Part shown: positions 22,092-29,275 of the stretch, in pieces
Position numbering within the stretch: position 1 is the first letter of the stretch
How the letters are laid out: each line of letters starts with the position of its first letter
Source: a virus
Length of the DNA: 64,000 bases
IMG/VR virus record: IMGVR_UViG_3300044632_001319
Reading direction: 5' to 3' (one strand)
The notes under the pieces: generated by a model
Database searches by the model: none
Told to the model about the DNA's origin: nothing
Seen by the model: only the letters and a program-made list of their open reading frames with translations
Position numbers and translations under genes: made by a program

Positions 22092-22897
22092 GATATGCAA
22101 TAGATATAGATAATACGCTTGTAAAAACCAACGGATCTGATTACAGTAACTCAGTTCCGATTCAAAGTATGATCGATCGTGTAAATAGATTATATGATGA
22201 TGGAAACACAGTTTATCTTTTTACTGCGCGCGGATCTGCTTCTGGTAAAGATCATTCGCAACTTACACATGATCAGATGAAAAGATTCGGAGTAAAGTAC
22301 GATAAGATAATATTTGGAAAACCAGATGTCGATCTTTTTATAGACGATAAGGCATTATCAGTAAAGGAATGGAATCGTAAAATGATTTTAAAAATATACA
22401 AAATTTATCCAGATGTGCCAGATGTAAAATACGGAACAAAGAATTCCGCGTGTTTCGACATCGCAGCACATTTTCATTATCAGCATTCGTTCAAGACATT
22501 TTCCAAAGATAATAAAGAAATAATAGTTCTTGGTTCTCAAGACGAAAATGGTCGAGGATATATTGACGTACCATCTGAGTGGAGAATACTTGTTCCGACT
22601 GGAATAATTCTCGACATTCCAGAACAGCATTGTGTAAAGATCTATCCTCGCTCTGGTCTTTCCACAAAGAAAGGATTGAATCTCATTAATTGTGTTGGTA
22701 TAATCGACTCAGATTATGTCGAACAACTGATGATTCCAGTCTATAATAATTCTCAAGAACGTCTACGAATTTATTCTGGTGATCGCATAGCACAAGGTGA
22801 ATTGGTTTACCAACCCCAGGCAGATCTTTCATACATAAATGAAAGACCATCTCGTAAAAGTGATCGTGATGGCGGGTTTGGATCTACAGGTGTATAA
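22088..22897 (+). CDS. dut: HAD phosphatase fused to trimeric dUTPase
   Basis: N-terminal IDIDNT, FTARG, GKP..D.FIDDK; C-terminal SACFDI, LVPTG, PRSGL, GIIDSDY, GDRIAQ, RDGGFGSTG. Confidence 0.85.
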   Translation: MRYAIDIDNTLVKTNGSDYSNSVPIQSMIDRVNRLYDDGNTVYLFTARGSASGKDHSQLTHDQMKRFGVKYDKIIFGKPDVDLFIDDKALSVKEWNRKMILKIYKIYPDVPDVKYGTKNSACFDIAAHFHYQHSFKTFSKDNKEIIVLGSQDENGRGYIDVPSEWRILVPTGIILDIPEQHCVKIYPRSGLSTKKGLNLINCVGIIDSDYVEQLMIPVYNNSQERLRIYSGDRIAQGELVYQPQADLSYINERPSRKSDRDGGFGSTGV

Positions 22898-24234
22898 TGA
22901 ACAAAACAAAAATTGATGATGTGGTAGACTTCCTCAAGAAGTTTGCTGGTGATGACGGTATTCCAGTTATTAATGGAACCGATTGGGAAGAGATGAATAA
23001 TCTCTTTAAGAAAGAAGAAATTAAAGAGGGAATGGCAGAATATGTTTTAAAGTATTCTGTTTTATTTCCTTTTAGACATATTCCAATCGAAGATGTAGAA
23101 AAGAAATTTAAAGAACTTCGTGCTGCTCCACATATGGAGTTCATTATGCGTGATGCTGGAACTGTTACTGAAAAATACACTGATTACAAATATCCATACT
23201 CAACACATGGTAAGTTTGTAATCTCTTATGGTCATTATTTTAATGACATCAGTAATTATTATCAGCAACGAAATCGCTATGACTGTGGTTCACATGGATT
23301 TGTTTCTCCAAATGAATACTGGTATTCTCCAGATCTGCTTAAGAAGATGAACTGGACTTTCTGGAGAATGGAAGACCGTGGAATCAATCATGGAAAGATT
23401 CGCGGATCCTTCAGACTTGGGGCATATGTTGCTACACAATTCAAACCACAGGTAGCAAAGACCATCTTTGATTTTGTACAATCAAAGGTTAAGACCAGAA
23501 AGTTTTCTATTCTTGACTTCAGCATGGGGTGGGGTGATCGTCTTGCTGGATTCTATGCGTCAAGAGCAACGCACTATCTTGGAACAGATCCAAATCCAAG
23601 TGTGTTCCGAGTATACAAGGACCAATGTATCGCGTATGAGAAGATAATCTCTGGCAGAGATCCAATTATTACAGACTTTCAAAAGGAAGTAAACGGTCAC
23701 ATCTATGATGCGTTTAGATGCATTGGAGCATCAGGCAAAGAAATAATTGTATACAATGCTCCTGCTGAAGATATACTGGATGTTATCAAAGCAAACAAAT
23801 ATGATTGTATCTTTACATCACCACCATACTTCTCAACAGAATTGTATGATGAGGGTGGAGATGACTGGAAGCAATCATGGTTCCGTTATTCGGAGTATGA
23901 TAAGTGGTGGAATAAGTTTTACTCACCAGTTATGAAAGCATGTTTCGAATCATTGGAAGATCACGGATCGATGATGATCAATATCATGGATCCTCATGTG
24001 TATGGTAAACGATACAATACATGTGATCAGATGGTAGATTACATCAAGGGTCTTGGTGGAGTGTTCGACGGGCAGATTGGTATGAGAATCAAGCAACGAC
24101 CAAAGAACATTGATTCTGCTGAACTTAAGAAATATCTTGTCACAACTTTTATTGAAAACATTTGGTGTTTTTCAAAGAATGGATTTGACTTATCTCCAGG
24201 ATTTGCTACACTAGAGGGACTGTTCGGAGACTAA
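22897..24234 (+). CDS. Amino-type (m6A/m4C) DNA methyltransferase-like protein
   Basis: ILDFSMGWGDRL SAM motif, GTDPN, FTSPPYF catalytic motif. Confidence 0.75.
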   Translation: MNKTKIDDVVDFLKKFAGDDGIPVINGTDWEEMNNLFKKEEIKEGMAEYVLKYSVLFPFRHIPIEDVEKKFKELRAAPHMEFIMRDAGTVTEKYTDYKYPYSTHGKFVISYGHYFNDISNYYQQRNRYDCGSHGFVSPNEYWYSPDLLKKMNWTFWRMEDRGINHGKIRGSFRLGAYVATQFKPQVAKTIFDFVQSKVKTRKFSILDFSMGWGDRLAGFYASRATHYLGTDPNPSVFRVYKDQCIAYEKIISGRDPIITDFQKEVNGHIYDAFRCIGASGKEIIVYNAPAEDILDVIKANKYDCIFTSPPYFSTELYDEGGDDWKQSWFRYSEYDKWWNKFYSPVMKACFESLEDHGSMMINIMDPHVYGKRYNTCDQMVDYIKGLGGVFDGQIGMRIKQRPKNIDSAELKKYLVTTFIENIWCFSKNGFDLSPGFATLEGLFGD

Positions 24235-24235
24235 T

Positions 24236-24550
24236 ATGACCAAGGATGAACTTTTTAAATTACACGAAGAAATGTCTGCCGCTGCGCTTCTTCTCATGAA
24301 GAAAAAGAATGCAGATTATGCTGGTGGGGTGTCTGATCCCTTTGCTAATTTTCGACGCGCTGAAGCGTTAGGTGTTTGTTCTACTGAGCAAGCATTTCTT
24401 GTCAGGATGACTGATAAGATGTCTCGTCTTTCTTCCTTTGCAAAGAAAGGCACATTAGCAGTAGAAGATGAATCTGTACACGATACACTTCTTGATCTGA
24501 TCAACTATTCGGTTCTTCTTTCCGCCTACATCAAGTCAAACGTAAAATGA
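24236..24550 (+). CDS. Nucleotide-modification-associated helical protein (DUF1599/Nmad1-like)
   Basis: KKNADYAG..DPFANF, R..DK.SRL, ESV.DTL.DL.NY. Confidence 0.7.
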   Translation: MTKDELFKLHEEMSAAALLLMKKKNADYAGGVSDPFANFRRAEALGVCSTEQAFLVRMTDKMSRLSSFAKKGTLAVEDESVHDTLLDLINYSVLLSAYIKSNVK

Positions 24551-26025
24551 ATTTTTACACAAACGTTTTTTATAATTTTGATTCCATTCTTTATGCTGAG
24601 AAAGAGAATGGTGTAACAAAATACAGAAGTCAAAAATATGTTCCAAAGGTTTATCTCCCATCTAAAAAGAAAACTGATATTGTTTCGATTCATGGTGAAT
24701 CTCTGGCAGAAATGACATTTGATTCATATCAATCCTACAAGGAATTCAATGACAAGTATTCTGATGTTCCTGGGTTTGAAATTCATGGTGACATCCAAAC
24801 AGAATATCAATTTATTAATTCCAAGTATGGTACTGATGTACAATACGATTTTTCTAAAATCGATGTAATGTACATAGATATCGAAACGACCTCGGAAAAT
24901 GGTTGGCCTTCGATTGAGGATCCCCGTGAAAAAATCAATGTGATTACTCTGCTGTCAACGAGAACAGGAAGAGCGACTTTCTGTCTTGGAAAAGTAAAGT
25001 TGGCAGATATGTCTCGTATATACGAATACGATGACGAAGAAGAAATGCTCACGGCATTTCTTGATTATTTTGCAGCAAATTATCCTGATGTTGTTTCGGG
25101 ATGGAATATACGATTCTTCGATTTCCCATATCTCATCAGAAGAATCAAGCATTTGATGGGATTCAAAGCAGCAAAGAAACTTTCTCCATGGGGAATCGTC
25201 AAGGAGAAGTTTATTACTAGGAATGGAAACGAAGAACTGATGTATGACATAATCGGCATTTCTATGCTTGATTATTATGAAGTCTACAAGACATTCACAT
25301 ACACGAATCAGGAATCATATTCATTGAATCATATTTCTTATGTAGAACTGGGTGAGAAAAAACTTGGTTATGAAGAGTATGAAAGTTTGACTGAATTCTA
25401 TCGCAAGGACTTTTCTAAGTTTGTTCAGTATAACATTCGAGATGTTGAACTTGTTCAGAAGTTGGAAGAGAAACTAAAATTAATTGAACTGGCAATTGCT
25501 CTGGCATATTCAGCAGGAGTAAATTATCAGGATGTCTTCTCCCAAGTTCGTACATGGGATGTAATCATTTACAACACACTTAGCAACAAAGGAATTGCAA
25601 TTCCACCAAAGAAAAAGGGAAGAAAAGACGAGCAATATGCTGGTGGTTATGTAAAAGAACCACAAGTAGGTATGCACAAGTGGGTAGTATCCTTTGACTT
25701 GAATTCACTGTATCCGCATCTCATCATGCAGTACAATATCTCACCAGAAACAATCACAAAGGAAAGTGTTCGTGGTGTGGTATCACCCGAAGGCGTACTA
25801 AAAAGAGGTTCAGTGACAATGGGTGTTCTTGAAGATAACAAGAAGAGAAATGTATCAACTGCTGCTAATGGAACTACCTATAGAAAAGATGTGCGTGGAT
25901 TCTTGCCAGAACTTATGGATCAAATGTATAAAGATCGTAAAATGTTCAAGAACAAAATGATTGATGCCAAAAAGAATCTGGAAGATATCAACGCAGAAAT
26001 GAAGCGAAGGGGCTTGACAAAGTAA
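24547..26025 (+). CDS. gp43: B-family DNA polymerase, N-terminal subunit (gp43A: exonuclease, palm motif A, first finger helix)
   Basis: YIDIET, VVSGWNIRFFD, YNIRDV, SFDLNSLYPHLIMQYNISPET; ends ...EMKRRGLTK. Confidence 0.95.
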   Translation: MNFYTNVFYNFDSILYAEKENGVTKYRSQKYVPKVYLPSKKKTDIVSIHGESLAEMTFDSYQSYKEFNDKYSDVPGFEIHGDIQTEYQFINSKYGTDVQYDFSKIDVMYIDIETTSENGWPSIEDPREKINVITLLSTRTGRATFCLGKVKLADMSRIYEYDDEEEMLTAFLDYFAANYPDVVSGWNIRFFDFPYLIRRIKHLMGFKAAKKLSPWGIVKEKFITRNGNEELMYDIIGISMLDYYEVYKTFTYTNQESYSLNHISYVELGEKKLGYEEYESLTEFYRKDFSKFVQYNIRDVELVQKLEEKLKLIELAIALAYSAGVNYQDVFSQVRTWDVIIYNTLSNKGIAIPPKKKGRKDEQYAGGYVKEPQVGMHKWVVSFDLNSLYPHLIMQYNISPETITKESVRGVVSPEGVLKRGSVTMGVLEDNKKRNVSTAANGTTYRKDVRGFLPELMDQMYKDRKMFKNKMIDAKKNLEDINAEMKRRGLTK

Positions 26026-26041
26026 AGTTTAATGGTATACT
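26014..26041 (+). promoter_or_regulatory. sigma70-type promoter TTGACA-N16-TATACT with extended -10 (leaderless)
   Basis: TTGACA 26014-19, TG.TATACT 26033-41, ATG 6 nt downstream. Confidence 0.75.
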
Positions 26042-26047
26042 ATACCT

Positions 26048-26587
26048 ATGGAAACGAGGAACGTGATTGACCACTACCATTATTGGAAGCATGAAGCGAT
26101 CATCGCAGACCTTGATGCAAAGCGGAATAATTTTACCGTTGTTTGTAGCAATCTTTATAATGACTTCAATATTGCTACAGTTATTCGTAACGCGAATGCG
26201 TTTCTTTCTAAGCAAGTAATCCTTTATGGAGCAAAGCAGTATGATCGCCGTGGCACTGTAGGCACACATCATTACACACATTTCAAGCACGCCAAGACCT
26301 TTGTTGAACTGGAAGATCAGATCAAGATAATTCGTGGATCTTACGGAACAGTCAAAGTAATTGGCATAGATAATGTGCCAGGTGCTACGGCAATTGACGA
26401 GTTTGTATGGGACTCAAATACACATTATGTTCTAGCGTTTGGTCAGGAACAAGTTGGTCTACCCGCAGAAATCCTTGACATCTGCGACCAAGTATTGTAC
26501 ATTAAACAGTATGGAAGTGTCAGGAGTCTGAATGTAGGAACCGCGAGTGGTATCGCAATGTACGCACTCGCAAGTAATGTGTTTTAA
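26048..26587 (+). CDS. SPOUT (SpoU/TrmH/TrmL family) RNA 2'-O-methyltransferase
   Basis: N.ATVIRNANAF motif 1, LAFGQEQVGL motif 2, IKQYGSVRSLNVGTASGIAMY motif 3. Confidence 0.9.
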   Translation: METRNVIDHYHYWKHEAIIADLDAKRNNFTVVCSNLYNDFNIATVIRNANAFLSKQVILYGAKQYDRRGTVGTHHYTHFKHAKTFVELEDQIKIIRGSYGTVKVIGIDNVPGATAIDEFVWDSNTHYVLAFGQEQVGLPAEILDICDQVLYIKQYGSVRSLNVGTASGIAMYALASNVF

Positions 26588-26658
26588 TATCCCGTGGTGA
26601 AACGGTATCACAGGAGACTTTGGTTCTCTTTTTCCTAGTTCGAATCTAGGCGGGGTAG
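26588..26658 (+). tRNA. tRNA-Gln(UUG)
   Basis: Acceptor TATCCCG/CGGGGTA, anticodon arm GGAGA-CT TTG GT-TCTCT, T-loop GTTCGAAT; no encoded CCA. Confidence 0.9.
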
Positions 26659-26661
26659 TTC

Positions 26662-26745
26662 GGGATTGTGGCGGAACAGGCAGACGCAACAGACTTAAAA
26701 TCTGTCGATCAATTGATCGTGTGGGTTCGATTCCCACCATTCCCA
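26662..26745 (+). tRNA. tRNA-Leu(UAA)
   Basis: GGCGGAACAGGCAGACGC D-arm, ACAGA-CT TAA AA-TCTGT, long variable arm, GGTTCGATTCCC, A73. Confidence 0.92.
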
Positions 26746-26749
26746 TTAC

Positions 26750-26831
26750 ACCAATGTGGCGGAACTGGCAGACGCGGTGGATTCAAAATCCATTGCCTTA
26801 TGGCATGTGGGTTCGATTCCCACCTTTGGTA
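26750..26831 (+). tRNA. tRNA-Leu(CAA)
   Basis: ACCAATG/CTTTGGT acceptor, GTGGA-TT CAA AA-TCCAT, variable arm TGCC TTAT GGCA, GGTTCGATTCCC, A73. Confidence 0.92.
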
Positions 26832-26851
26832 TTATGAAACTAGAAGACACA

Positions 26852-27484
26852 ATGAAGACACTAATCGCAACAGCATTTATCGCAACGGCAGCACACGCAA
26901 ATCTCACACTCACATTTGAGGATCTGCCTGAGCCTACAGTACCTTCCTCAAACGTTGAGTTCGTGGTTGCAAGTCCTATCGGAGATTACCAAGGATTTCA
27001 GTTCTTGAGCAATCTCGTCGTTCCTGCATCGAATCCCGAATGGCAACCATTCTCAGGACGATGGGCATACTACGACATCAAGGATGTGGACTTCGGCGGC
27101 TACGACGATGGGCTCGTCGGTGACCGTGCGCTATTCACCCCCTATGGGTCGGACGCTGCCAATGGGTTTAGAATCAGTCGAGACGAACTTTGGAGGTTTG
27201 TCGGTGCGGACATCACCGCTGCATGGATTGACCTTGACTTGACTCTCACAGGATATCGGGATGGTTCGGTTGTATGGAGCCGCACTCTGTCGATCCCTTC
27301 TATGGTGAGAACAAGGCTAGAGTTCGATGAAGTAGCCATTGATACCTTGAAGATCTCAGGGTTTTCTCCTAACTCGCCCATCAACCATTTCATCCTCGAC
27401 AATTTCTCTTACGAGATCGTTCCCACACCATCGGCACTTGCTCTGCTTGCGGTTGCTGGTGTGATCCGAAGGCGGCGACGATAA
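26852..27484 (+). CDS. Secreted PEP-CTERM (PTP variant) sorting-domain protein
   Basis: Signal peptide MKTLIATAFIATAAHA, LTFEDL start, C-terminal ILDNF...VPTPSALALLAVAGVIRRRRR; the listed start at 26756 lies inside the tRNA, so was moved. Confidence 0.85.
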   Translation: MKTLIATAFIATAAHANLTLTFEDLPEPTVPSSNVEFVVASPIGDYQGFQFLSNLVVPASNPEWQPFSGRWAYYDIKDVDFGGYDDGLVGDRALFTPYGSDAANGFRISRDELWRFVGADITAAWIDLDLTLTGYRDGSVVWSRTLSIPSMVRTRLEFDEVAIDTLKISGFSPNSPINHFILDNFSYEIVPTPSALALLAVAGVIRRRRR

Positions 27485-27729
27485 TGTACGGAATCATTAC
27501 TGAAACAAACCAATTTGTGTCAGATAACCTAGTAGACTCTTCGGGAGAACCCCGCAAGGGTCTTCTTGTTTTTAAGAAGAAATCAAATGCGGTAACGGAA
27601 GCAGAAAGTCTAAACGAAATTCGCAAGAGAATGAAAATATCTCACTGCTATTCTGTCCAAAAGGCAACACCCGAGGATGTTCCAGAGTGTGGTATTATTT
27701 TAGATGGGTCATGGAAACAAAACTTATAA
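27484..27729 (+). CDS. Hypothetical protein
   Basis: 81-aa ORF coupled by TAATG overlap. Confidence 0.55.
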   Translation: MYGIITETNQFVSDNLVDSSGEPRKGLLVFKKKSNAVTEAESLNEIRKRMKISHCYSVQKATPEDVPECGIILDGSWKQNL

Positions 27730-27732
27730 ATA
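27725..27732 (+). promoter_or_regulatory. T4-type late promoter TATAAATA
   Basis: Exact consensus upstream of the ORF at 27751. Confidence 0.7.
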
Positions 27733-27750
27733 AACCAGAGGGACAAACTT

Positions 27751-28110
27751 ATGGAATGTATTACTAAATTATTAACGCTTCAGAATCAACTTCGTATTCA
27801 TCATTGGCAAACCCCATCCTATGCCGAGCACAAGGCATTAGGTAAAGCCTACGAGGGATTAGACGATCTTATCGATACCTTTGTCGAAACATACATGGGA
27901 AAGTATGGAAAAGATACTGAGCAACACAGAGGCATTGAACTTAAGGGATACGAAACTGCACATCCAATGCCAGTTATAAAATATTTTGAAGATTATTTGA
28001 CCAACGAACTTCCATCCGATTTGTCAGAAGAGGATACAGATCTTTTGAATATTCGAGATGAAATGCTAGGTTTACTCAATCAGACAAAGTATCTGTTGAC
28101 ACTTCATTGA
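27751..28110 (+). CDS. Ferritin/Dps-like four-helix protein (DUF5856-like)
   Basis: HHWQT.SYAEHKALG..Y..LDDLID.FVE..MG, DLLNIRDEM....NQTKYLLTL. Confidence 0.75.
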   Translation: MECITKLLTLQNQLRIHHWQTPSYAEHKALGKAYEGLDDLIDTFVETYMGKYGKDTEQHRGIELKGYETAHPMPVIKYFEDYLTNELPSDLSEEDTDLLNIRDEMLGLLNQTKYLLTLH

Positions 28111-28123
28111 TTTGTGATATACT
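28096..28123 (+). promoter_or_regulatory. sigma70-type promoter TTGACA-N16-TATACT (leaderless, for gp43B)
   Basis: TTGACA 28096-101, TG.TATACT 28115-23, ATG 6 nt downstream at 28130. Confidence 0.75.
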
Positions 28124-28129
28124 TTTATT

Positions 28130-29275
28130 ATGGATTTGAAATCTCTTTCTAATGATGAATTGTTGAAACTTAAAAGACAAGCAGAACTTGATATTTCCAA
28201 ATATCATAACTTTCAGTTGGTTCGTAAGATTCAATTGAACTCTGCTTACGGTGCAATAGGCAACCAATATTTCAGATATTATTCAACTGAACTCGCAGAG
28301 GCAATCACTCTGTCGGGTCAGTTGTCTATTCAATGGATTGGTCAGGAATTGAATAAGTATCTGAATAAAGTAGTAAAGACAGAAGATGTTGATTATGTAA
28401 TTTCCTCAGATACAGATTCGGTCTATCTTCGATTGGATGTGTTGGTGGAGAAAGCATTCCCAAACAAGGGAATGGTTGATGGCAAACCTGTCCCTCCTCC
28501 CGATACCAAGAATGTAGTGAACTTTCTTGATAAGTCAGCAGAAGAATTGCTTCTTCCGTTCATCGACAAGAAGTTTAAGGAACTTGCCGATCTTACAAAT
28601 GCCTATGAAAATAAAATGCAGATGGGTCGAGAGGTTATTGCTGACAAGGGAATTTGGACTGCGAAGAAAAGATACATGTTGAATGTGTGGGATTCTGAAG
28701 GTGTACGATATGCAGAACCCAAACTCAAGATCATGGGCATTGAAACAACTCGCTCATCGACTCCCGAATTTGTTCGCAAGCATTTGAAGACTGCGATCAA
28801 TATTACAATGAATGGGACCGAAAGCGATATGGTTGACTTTGTTGAGAAATGTCGTCAGGAATTTTATTCCTTGCCCCCAGAGGATATTGCATTTCCCCGA
28901 AGCGTCAATGGCATGGACAAATATGCGGATCGGGAATCGATTTATAAAAAATCAACACCAATCGCTGTCAAAGGTGCTTTGATCTATAATCATTATCTCA
29001 ATCAATTTAAGATCAGCAAGAAATATCGCAATATCCGAGAAGGTGACAAAATTAAATTTCTTATGCTCAAGAAACCAAATCCTCTTGGTGGATCAATAGG
29101 AGAAGATCAAGTAATTTCATTTCCTAATGTTCTTCCAAAGGAATTTAAACTTGAAGGATATATTGATTTTAAAACTCAGTTTGAGAAATCATTTATTGAT
29201 CCATTGACTGCCATCCTAGATACTATTGGTTGGTCAACAGAGAAGAAAAATACACTAGAAAATTTATTCGGTTGA
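28130..29275 (+). CDS. gp43: B-family DNA polymerase, C-terminal subunit (gp43B: second finger helix, motifs B/C, thumb, clamp-binding tail)
   Basis: [40 protein letters not shown]-terminal TLENLFG. Confidence 0.95.

Follow-up and report, generated by a model that had tools for sequence, protein, structure and literature searches.

SpoU-type SPOUT methyltransferases catalyze SAM-dependent 2'-O-methylation as homodimers (PMC9508554). In Thermus TrmH, the C-terminal extension is needed for tRNA binding and its loss abolishes activity (PMC9508554). In TrmL, three arginines (R45, R46 and R129) are required for tRNA binding and activity, in place of such extensions (PMC3763551). The s2Um wobble modification of Streptomyces and M. 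bovis is an orphan (PMC12772374). RiboMethSeq of S. albidoflavus gave no Gm18 and a protected Um34 in tRNA-Gln(UUG), Glu(UUC) and Lys(UUU); the s2Um was confirmed by LC-MS without an enzyme being assigned, and it persists after deletion of XNR_5296 (PMC12772374). In the literature that we searched, we found no description of a phage that modifies the anticodon of its own tRNA with a SPOUT enzyme.

Here we describe a phage gene that, with a probability of roughly one half, encodes a 2'-O-methyltransferase for the wobble ribose (position 34) of tRNA-Gln(UUG), perhaps also of tRNA-Glu and tRNA-Lys. The gene lies in a 64-kb window (the whole stretch of viral DNA analysed), which comes from a freshwater, T4-like phage. 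It spans 26048..26587 on the + strand and encodes 179 amino acids with the invariant motifs of an uncharacterised SPOUT/SpoU 2'-O-methyltransferase family. The ORF matches the Pfam domain SpoU_methylase (PF00588) with an E-value of 3.8e-23 (82.6 bits; gathering score 29.7). The base directly after its stop codon is the first base of tRNA-Gln(UUG) (26588..26658, +), with the loop C32-U33-U34-U35-G36-G37-U38. After gaps of 3 nt and 4 nt follow tRNA-Leu(UAA) (26662..26745, +) and tRNA-Leu(CAA) (26750..26831, +), both without an encoded CCA; in relatives the latter is often missing or displaced. ARAGORN detects no further tRNA in the window, and the D-loop GG is present in all three. The first-pass annotation had described a promoter followed by the SPOUT gene and these three tRNAs, and its coordinates agree with Pfam and ARAGORN. 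It also pointed to A36-A37-A38 and A73 in both Leu tRNAs. Those bases are there, although they are not diagnostic and would be expected in almost any tRNA-Leu(NAA), since A36 belongs to the anticodon and A73 commonly serves as the identity base of tRNA-Leu.

A sigma70-type promoter-like site (TTGACA-16-TG-TATACT; 26014..26041, +) stands in front of the methylase gene and matches the consensus at 11 of 12 positions. Promoter-like sites in this region are at chance level (11 versus 10.7 expected from shuffles), so the support for this one comes from its quality and position. Loosely matched upstream sites are found in 20 of 59 related lineages, most clearly in the close clade. Metatranscriptomes (three runs from three studies) contain contigs almost identical to the methylase ORF; these carry no information on transcription, strand or co-transcription and are a weak hint of expression.

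The block had also been regarded as a self-contained module, which the surroundings contradict. There is no real terminator 3' of the tRNAs, where the sole terminator-like match is a T-arm, and three same-strand ORFs follow. The T4-like DNA polymerase gene (gp43, 24547-29275) is split, and a variable island of 2.1 kb, which begins with the methylase and its tRNAs, separates its two halves. The N-terminal half (24547..26025, +) forms the left border of the island, its end being overlapped by the promoter-like site, and the C-terminal half (28130..29275, +) has a promoter-like site of its own at 28096. The rest of the island consists of a PEP-CTERM-like passenger gene (26852..27484, +), which has 51% GC and is variable among relatives, and of an 81-aa orphan and a DUF5856 gene (27484..28110, +). 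Relatives with at least 69% methylase identity have gp43 split at the same position. The content of the island changes even among close relatives, and sister lineages have Asp/Asn tRNAs or longer tRNA arrays in it, which argues that the block is no fixed unit. Homologues of the PEP-CTERM-like gene are mostly viral; the tail of its product presumably resembles Phycisphaerae sorting signals, a hint of a planctomycete host. Directly upstream of the polymerase (22897-24550) are a DNA methylase gene (PF01555, weak) and a DUF1599 nucleotide-modification-associated gene, which are conserved in relatives.

Which tRNA does the methylase accompany in other phages? We clustered the phage loci into lineages at 90% identity; 39 lineages have at least 4 kb of flank on each side. 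All 39 have a tRNA in the locus, in keeping with the earlier idea of a tRNA-directed 2'-O-methyltransferase kept within phage tRNA clusters, which is how the gene appears from its neighbourhood. The same idea tied the enzyme specifically to the two Leu tRNAs, and here the linkage fails: both are present in just 8 of the 39 lineages, and Gln takes their place. A Gln, Glu or Lys tRNA with U34 is present in 35 of the 39, and tRNA-Gln in 29. Of 48 lineages, 26 have tRNA-Gln(UUG) as the tRNA closest to the methylase (9.4 expected by chance) and 9 have Leu there (9.2 expected, hence no enrichment); the lineages are related, so the 26 are not independent events and these expectations make the evidence look stronger than it is. 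The adjacency of methylase and tRNA-Gln recurs in the clade of the window, in another, large clade (approximately 58% identity) and on isolated branches, and the methylase-adjacent tRNA-Gln genes differ in scaffold between lineages. In relatives the stop codon is often inside the tRNA-Gln gene (approximately 15 nt inside in L243, L266, L300 and their relatives). With a stop codon that abuts or enters the tRNA gene, RNase P cleavage would cut the 3' UTR, or even the stop codon, off the methylase message, which may act as a self-limiting control.

These neighbourhoods bear on two other readings. First, the gene might encode an rRNA methylase or be a passenger in a tRNA-bearing recombination hot spot. 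The island is indeed variable, homologues in Rhodococcus phages lie far from any tRNA, and RlmB and AviRb are among the top NCBIfam and structural scores. However, a tRNA lies within 1 kb of the methylase in 44 of 45 lineages, the stop codon often falls within the tRNA-Gln gene, and an eL30-like N-terminal RNA-binding domain is not found in the structure model of the 179-aa protein; we consider this reading the least probable of those discussed here. Second, the enzyme might be a counterpart of TrmL, specialised for tRNA-Leu(UAA/CAA), as first proposed. Leu(CAA) is directly 3' of the methylase gene in several lineages, the tested Streptomyces-like genomes have no TrmL, and the protein has equivalents of R45, R46 and R129. 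Against this stand the rarity of the Leu pair and its lack of enrichment. In addition, the TrmL model TIGR00185 gives only 26.6 bits (cut-off 190.6), and Weissella and Bifidobacterium have a family member plus a separate TrmL-like gene, a coexistence which argues against a Leu role. A TrmL identity is thus not borne out, and a dedicated Leu enzyme seems very unlikely.

The annotation had looked to HMMs and phylogeny to place the enzyme relative to TrmL, TrmH and TrmJ. It falls under the cut-offs of all three, and its family forms a separate clade in our quick tree. None of the curated models (RlmB, TrmH, TrmJ, TrmL) reaches its cut-off with the window methylase: RlmB scores 46.2 bits (cut-off 160), TrmH PRK11081, a narrow enterobacterial model, 40.9 (227), TrmJ TIGR00050 27.2 (167), with the C-terminal domain absent, and TrmL PRK10358 15.8 (282). 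A PHROGs search gave no family. The catalytic set N/R/E/S/N of the SpoU type is intact, and N41, R47, E134, R159, S160 and N162 are invariant in the family. By its membership of the SpoU-type SPOUT family, the protein would be expected to act as a homodimer in SAM-dependent 2'-O-methylation. The structure model (pLDDT 88) shows two short helices (residues 8-25) on the N-terminal side of a SPOUT domain and no C-terminal extension; the chain stops at the last SPOUT helix. In structure comparison AviRb, TARBP1 and TrmH are level at Z 19-20, with TrmL next at approximately 16, and the rmsd to AviRb and TrmH is 1.9-3.4 over 147-161 residues. The top PDB sequence match and the top Foldseek match are both Aquifex TrmH, and hhalign gives an E-value of 7e-21 to E. 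coli TrmH versus 4e-8 to TrmL. The overall sequence and fold scores thus favour TrmH, AviRb and RlmB over TrmL, which we count against position 34.

Such scores would suit a D-loop methylase of the TrmH type, one that makes Gm18 and thereby matures or stabilises many phage tRNAs, with the Gln adjacency kept by descent. The TrmH-like N-terminal helix fits this reading, as does the D-loop GG, which is kept in all Gln tRNAs examined. The details of tRNA binding point elsewhere. The family has 17-32 residues after the motif-3 Asn versus 80 in E. coli TrmH. The TrmL tRNA-binding residues R20, R45, R46 and R129 correspond to R47, R67, R68 and R159 of the methylase, while K42/R43 are loosely matched. 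R68 does not discriminate among the reference SPOUTs. R159, in contrast, is invariant in all 134 family rows and, among eight reference SPOUTs, is shared with TrmL only; the other seven have Q, S, E or D at this position. The missing C-terminal extension and the TrmL-type arginines are therefore a pointer away from G18. Together with the low TrmH score, the lack of Gm18 in S. albidoflavus and an exclusion of MnmE that a G18 methylase leaves unexplained, they lead us to find G18 a less likely target than position 34, and we regard the Gm18 reading as unlikely.

Where else does the family occur? We found approximately 2,100 homologues and confirmed 377 viral loci. Carriers include hundreds of aquatic phage contigs, actinomycetes, Weissella and a few MAGs; the cultured phages with a member are the Rhodococcus phages NiceHouse and Trina. 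A score gap clearly separates the members from other SPOUTs, and the window methylase matches an Arthrobacter member over its full length (E-value 5e-33). In a tree made by a quick method, with long reference branches, phage and cellular members form one clade (SH-aLRT 93) apart from TrmH, TrmL, TrmJ and RlmB. The family probably includes M. tuberculosis Rv0380c (O53715), which matches it in length and TrmH score. Rv0380c is listed as uncharacterised; its earlier assignment as TrmH, which would favour a Gm18 activity, comes from BLAST only. Longer, fused forms of 310-435 amino acids exist (e.g., P0151), one of them named "SpoU/uncharacterized phage-associated protein." Some Weissella-type genomes have two copies. 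A locus in a Bacteroidota MAG (L083) also resembles a phage tRNA cluster.

We set a prediction before the test: if the enzyme makes a substitute wobble mark, it is expected where MnmEG is missing. In Lactobacillaceae (n = 121), there are 5 carriers and 98 genomes with MnmE, with no overlap (nominal P 1.7e-4). In Actinomycetota (n = 201, with G006 and G023 entering as non-carriers only), there are 33 carriers and 37 genomes with MnmE, again with no overlap (nominal P 6e-4). These P values ignore kinship, and many of the genomes are MAGs, in which "not found" differs from "absent." MnmE was not found in the further carriers tested, with one apparent exception. This is on contig C90 of G004 (L084, L357), a 546-kb, 36% GC contig within a Bacteriovoracaceae MAG; because it bears a terminase, it is probably a misbinned huge phage. 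In most MnmE-less genomes the family is not found (18 of the 23 in Lactobacillaceae and 150 of the 151 in the class of G003), and it is therefore no required substitute for MnmE. G003 (labelled Lancefieldella) was considered as a contrast in an MnmE-rich class and rejected, as MnmE occurs in 0 of 61 of its class. Neither MnmA nor MnmE was found in 23 Lactobacillaceae, including Weissella (G002, G222, G259, G290, G317). A unique loss of both by carriers was rejected, as all 23 MnmE-less Lactobacillaceae are without MnmA, carriers or not. Loss of both modifications is lethal in Salmonella (PMC5400242).

The Streptomyces-like genomes (9 carriers among 31) are of special interest for the orphan Um34; the Um34 data come from strain J1074, which may or may not be a carrier and may have extra paralogues. 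Four of five such genomes have exactly four SpoU enzymes, none of them TrmL-like: RlmB, a further two-domain enzyme, an XNR_5296 orthologue and a gene in a fourth slot. This slot is fixed in position, with an HTTM-like gene on one side and paaN on the other, and in 15 loci (L351, L352, L359-L363, L369-L376) it is occupied by a member of the orphan family or by an unrelated SPOUT of the eL30 type, but never by the two together. The eL30-type SPOUT is present in 15 of the 201 genomes and is disjoint from the orphan family and from MnmE (nominal P 0.06 and 0.04). It is another candidate enzyme for the orphan Um34. It lacks R159, and we count this, like the patchy carriage in Streptomyces, against position 34. 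An identification of the slot gene with XNR_5296 was rejected, since the primers map to another paralogue. Masking as the reason for the patchy presence was also rejected, as the slot is filled by another SPOUT.

Another point against position 34 comes from two phage lineages in which the methylase neighbours Gln(CUG). Both Gln(UUG) and Gln(CUG) are compatible with a methylase for position 32, and E. coli tRNA-Gln carries Um32. The enzyme might thus be TrmJ-like, or act on another tRNA position such as the protected position 12 of Streptomyces tRNAs. Homology predicts SPOUT targets poorly, as XNR_5296 illustrates, being TrmH-family-like and yet acting at 32. In Streptomyces-like carriers, however, position 32 is already served by the XNR_5296 orthologue, the TrmJ scores are weak, and the exclusion of MnmE is left without a reason. 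We therefore look upon such a target as rather improbable.

An anticodon target for the methylase is plausible. We infer position 34, along with co-transcription and a purpose, the position being indicated by the Gln linkage, the TrmL-type arginines, the exclusion of MnmE and the Um34 without Gm18 in S. albidoflavus. A minimal SPOUT protein, acting as a SAM-dependent dimer, would methylate the position-34 ribose of tRNA-Gln(UUG), a substrate that would be made from the methylase's own transcript. Other tRNAs of the xm5s2U class (Glu, Lys), where present, would be probable further substrates, and the Leu tRNAs would ride along on the transcript or be secondary substrates at most. A 2'-O-methyl group at position 34 would favour a sugar conformation that aids the reading of A-ending codons, and it would prevent 2'-OH-dependent cleavage of the 34-35 bond; nucleases that cut elsewhere would be unaffected. 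The likelier purpose would be for the phage tRNA-Gln to read the dominant CAA codon well. The trio had been seen as serving A/U-rich codons, and Gln codon usage agrees: CAA makes up 74% of the Gln codons in the window. UUA and UUG together make up 33% of its Leu codons. A second benefit might be a block to cleavage 3' of the wobble base; an anti-nuclease role is speculation.

It is tempting to go further. The family might be the missing (s2)Um34 enzyme for Gln, Glu and Lys tRNAs, an alternative to MnmEG in actinomycetes and Weissella. Aquatic T4-like phages would have captured it and fused it to tRNA-Gln to make a host-foreign wobble mark, which would also stop anticodon nucleases that cut 3' of the wobble base; as a whole, we hold this scenario to be unlikely. 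If the position-34 reading is true, a phage modifies its own tRNA anticodon instead of relying on host enzymes. Phage gene order would then reveal what an uncharacterised enzyme family of many actinomycetes acts on, and would provide a candidate enzyme for the orphan s2Um of Streptomyces and M. bovis (PMC12772374). The main value is that an orphan modification would become directly testable.

How does the window methylase compare with its nearest known counterparts? In phages, these are the "tRNA-methyltransferases" of NiceHouse (gp33) and Trina, which are 33-34% identical. They are named by homology only and, unlike the window gene, have no tRNA within 5 kb; in NiceHouse (L081), an RNA ligase gene lies seven genes away, a possible tRNA repair context. 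In cells, the orphan SPOUTs of Arthrobacter (WP_054009725), Nocardia, Bifidobacterium and Weissella are 38-43% identical over nearly the full length. These proteins and the window methylase share the N-terminal RN..D.Y.YW, the RRG and the RS[LI]N motifs, but no cellular member adjoins tRNA genes as the phage copies do. TrmH/SpoU (tRNA Gm18; 1ZJR, 1V2X, 7EDC) is closest in overall sequence and fold, with an N-terminal helix and the N/R/E/S/N set in both. The window methylase differs from it in having no C-terminal extension and in having R159 where TrmH has Q, and its family occurs in Gram-positive groups without detected Gm18. TrmL/CspR (tRNA-Leu Um34/Cm34) is likewise a near-minimal SPOUT domain, and its R20, R45, R46, R129 and Y142 have equivalents in the window methylase. 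Unlike TrmL, which is a SPOUT domain only, the window methylase has an extra N-terminal segment of approximately 25 residues, its family coexists with TrmL-like genes in cells, and its linkage in phages is to Gln, not Leu.
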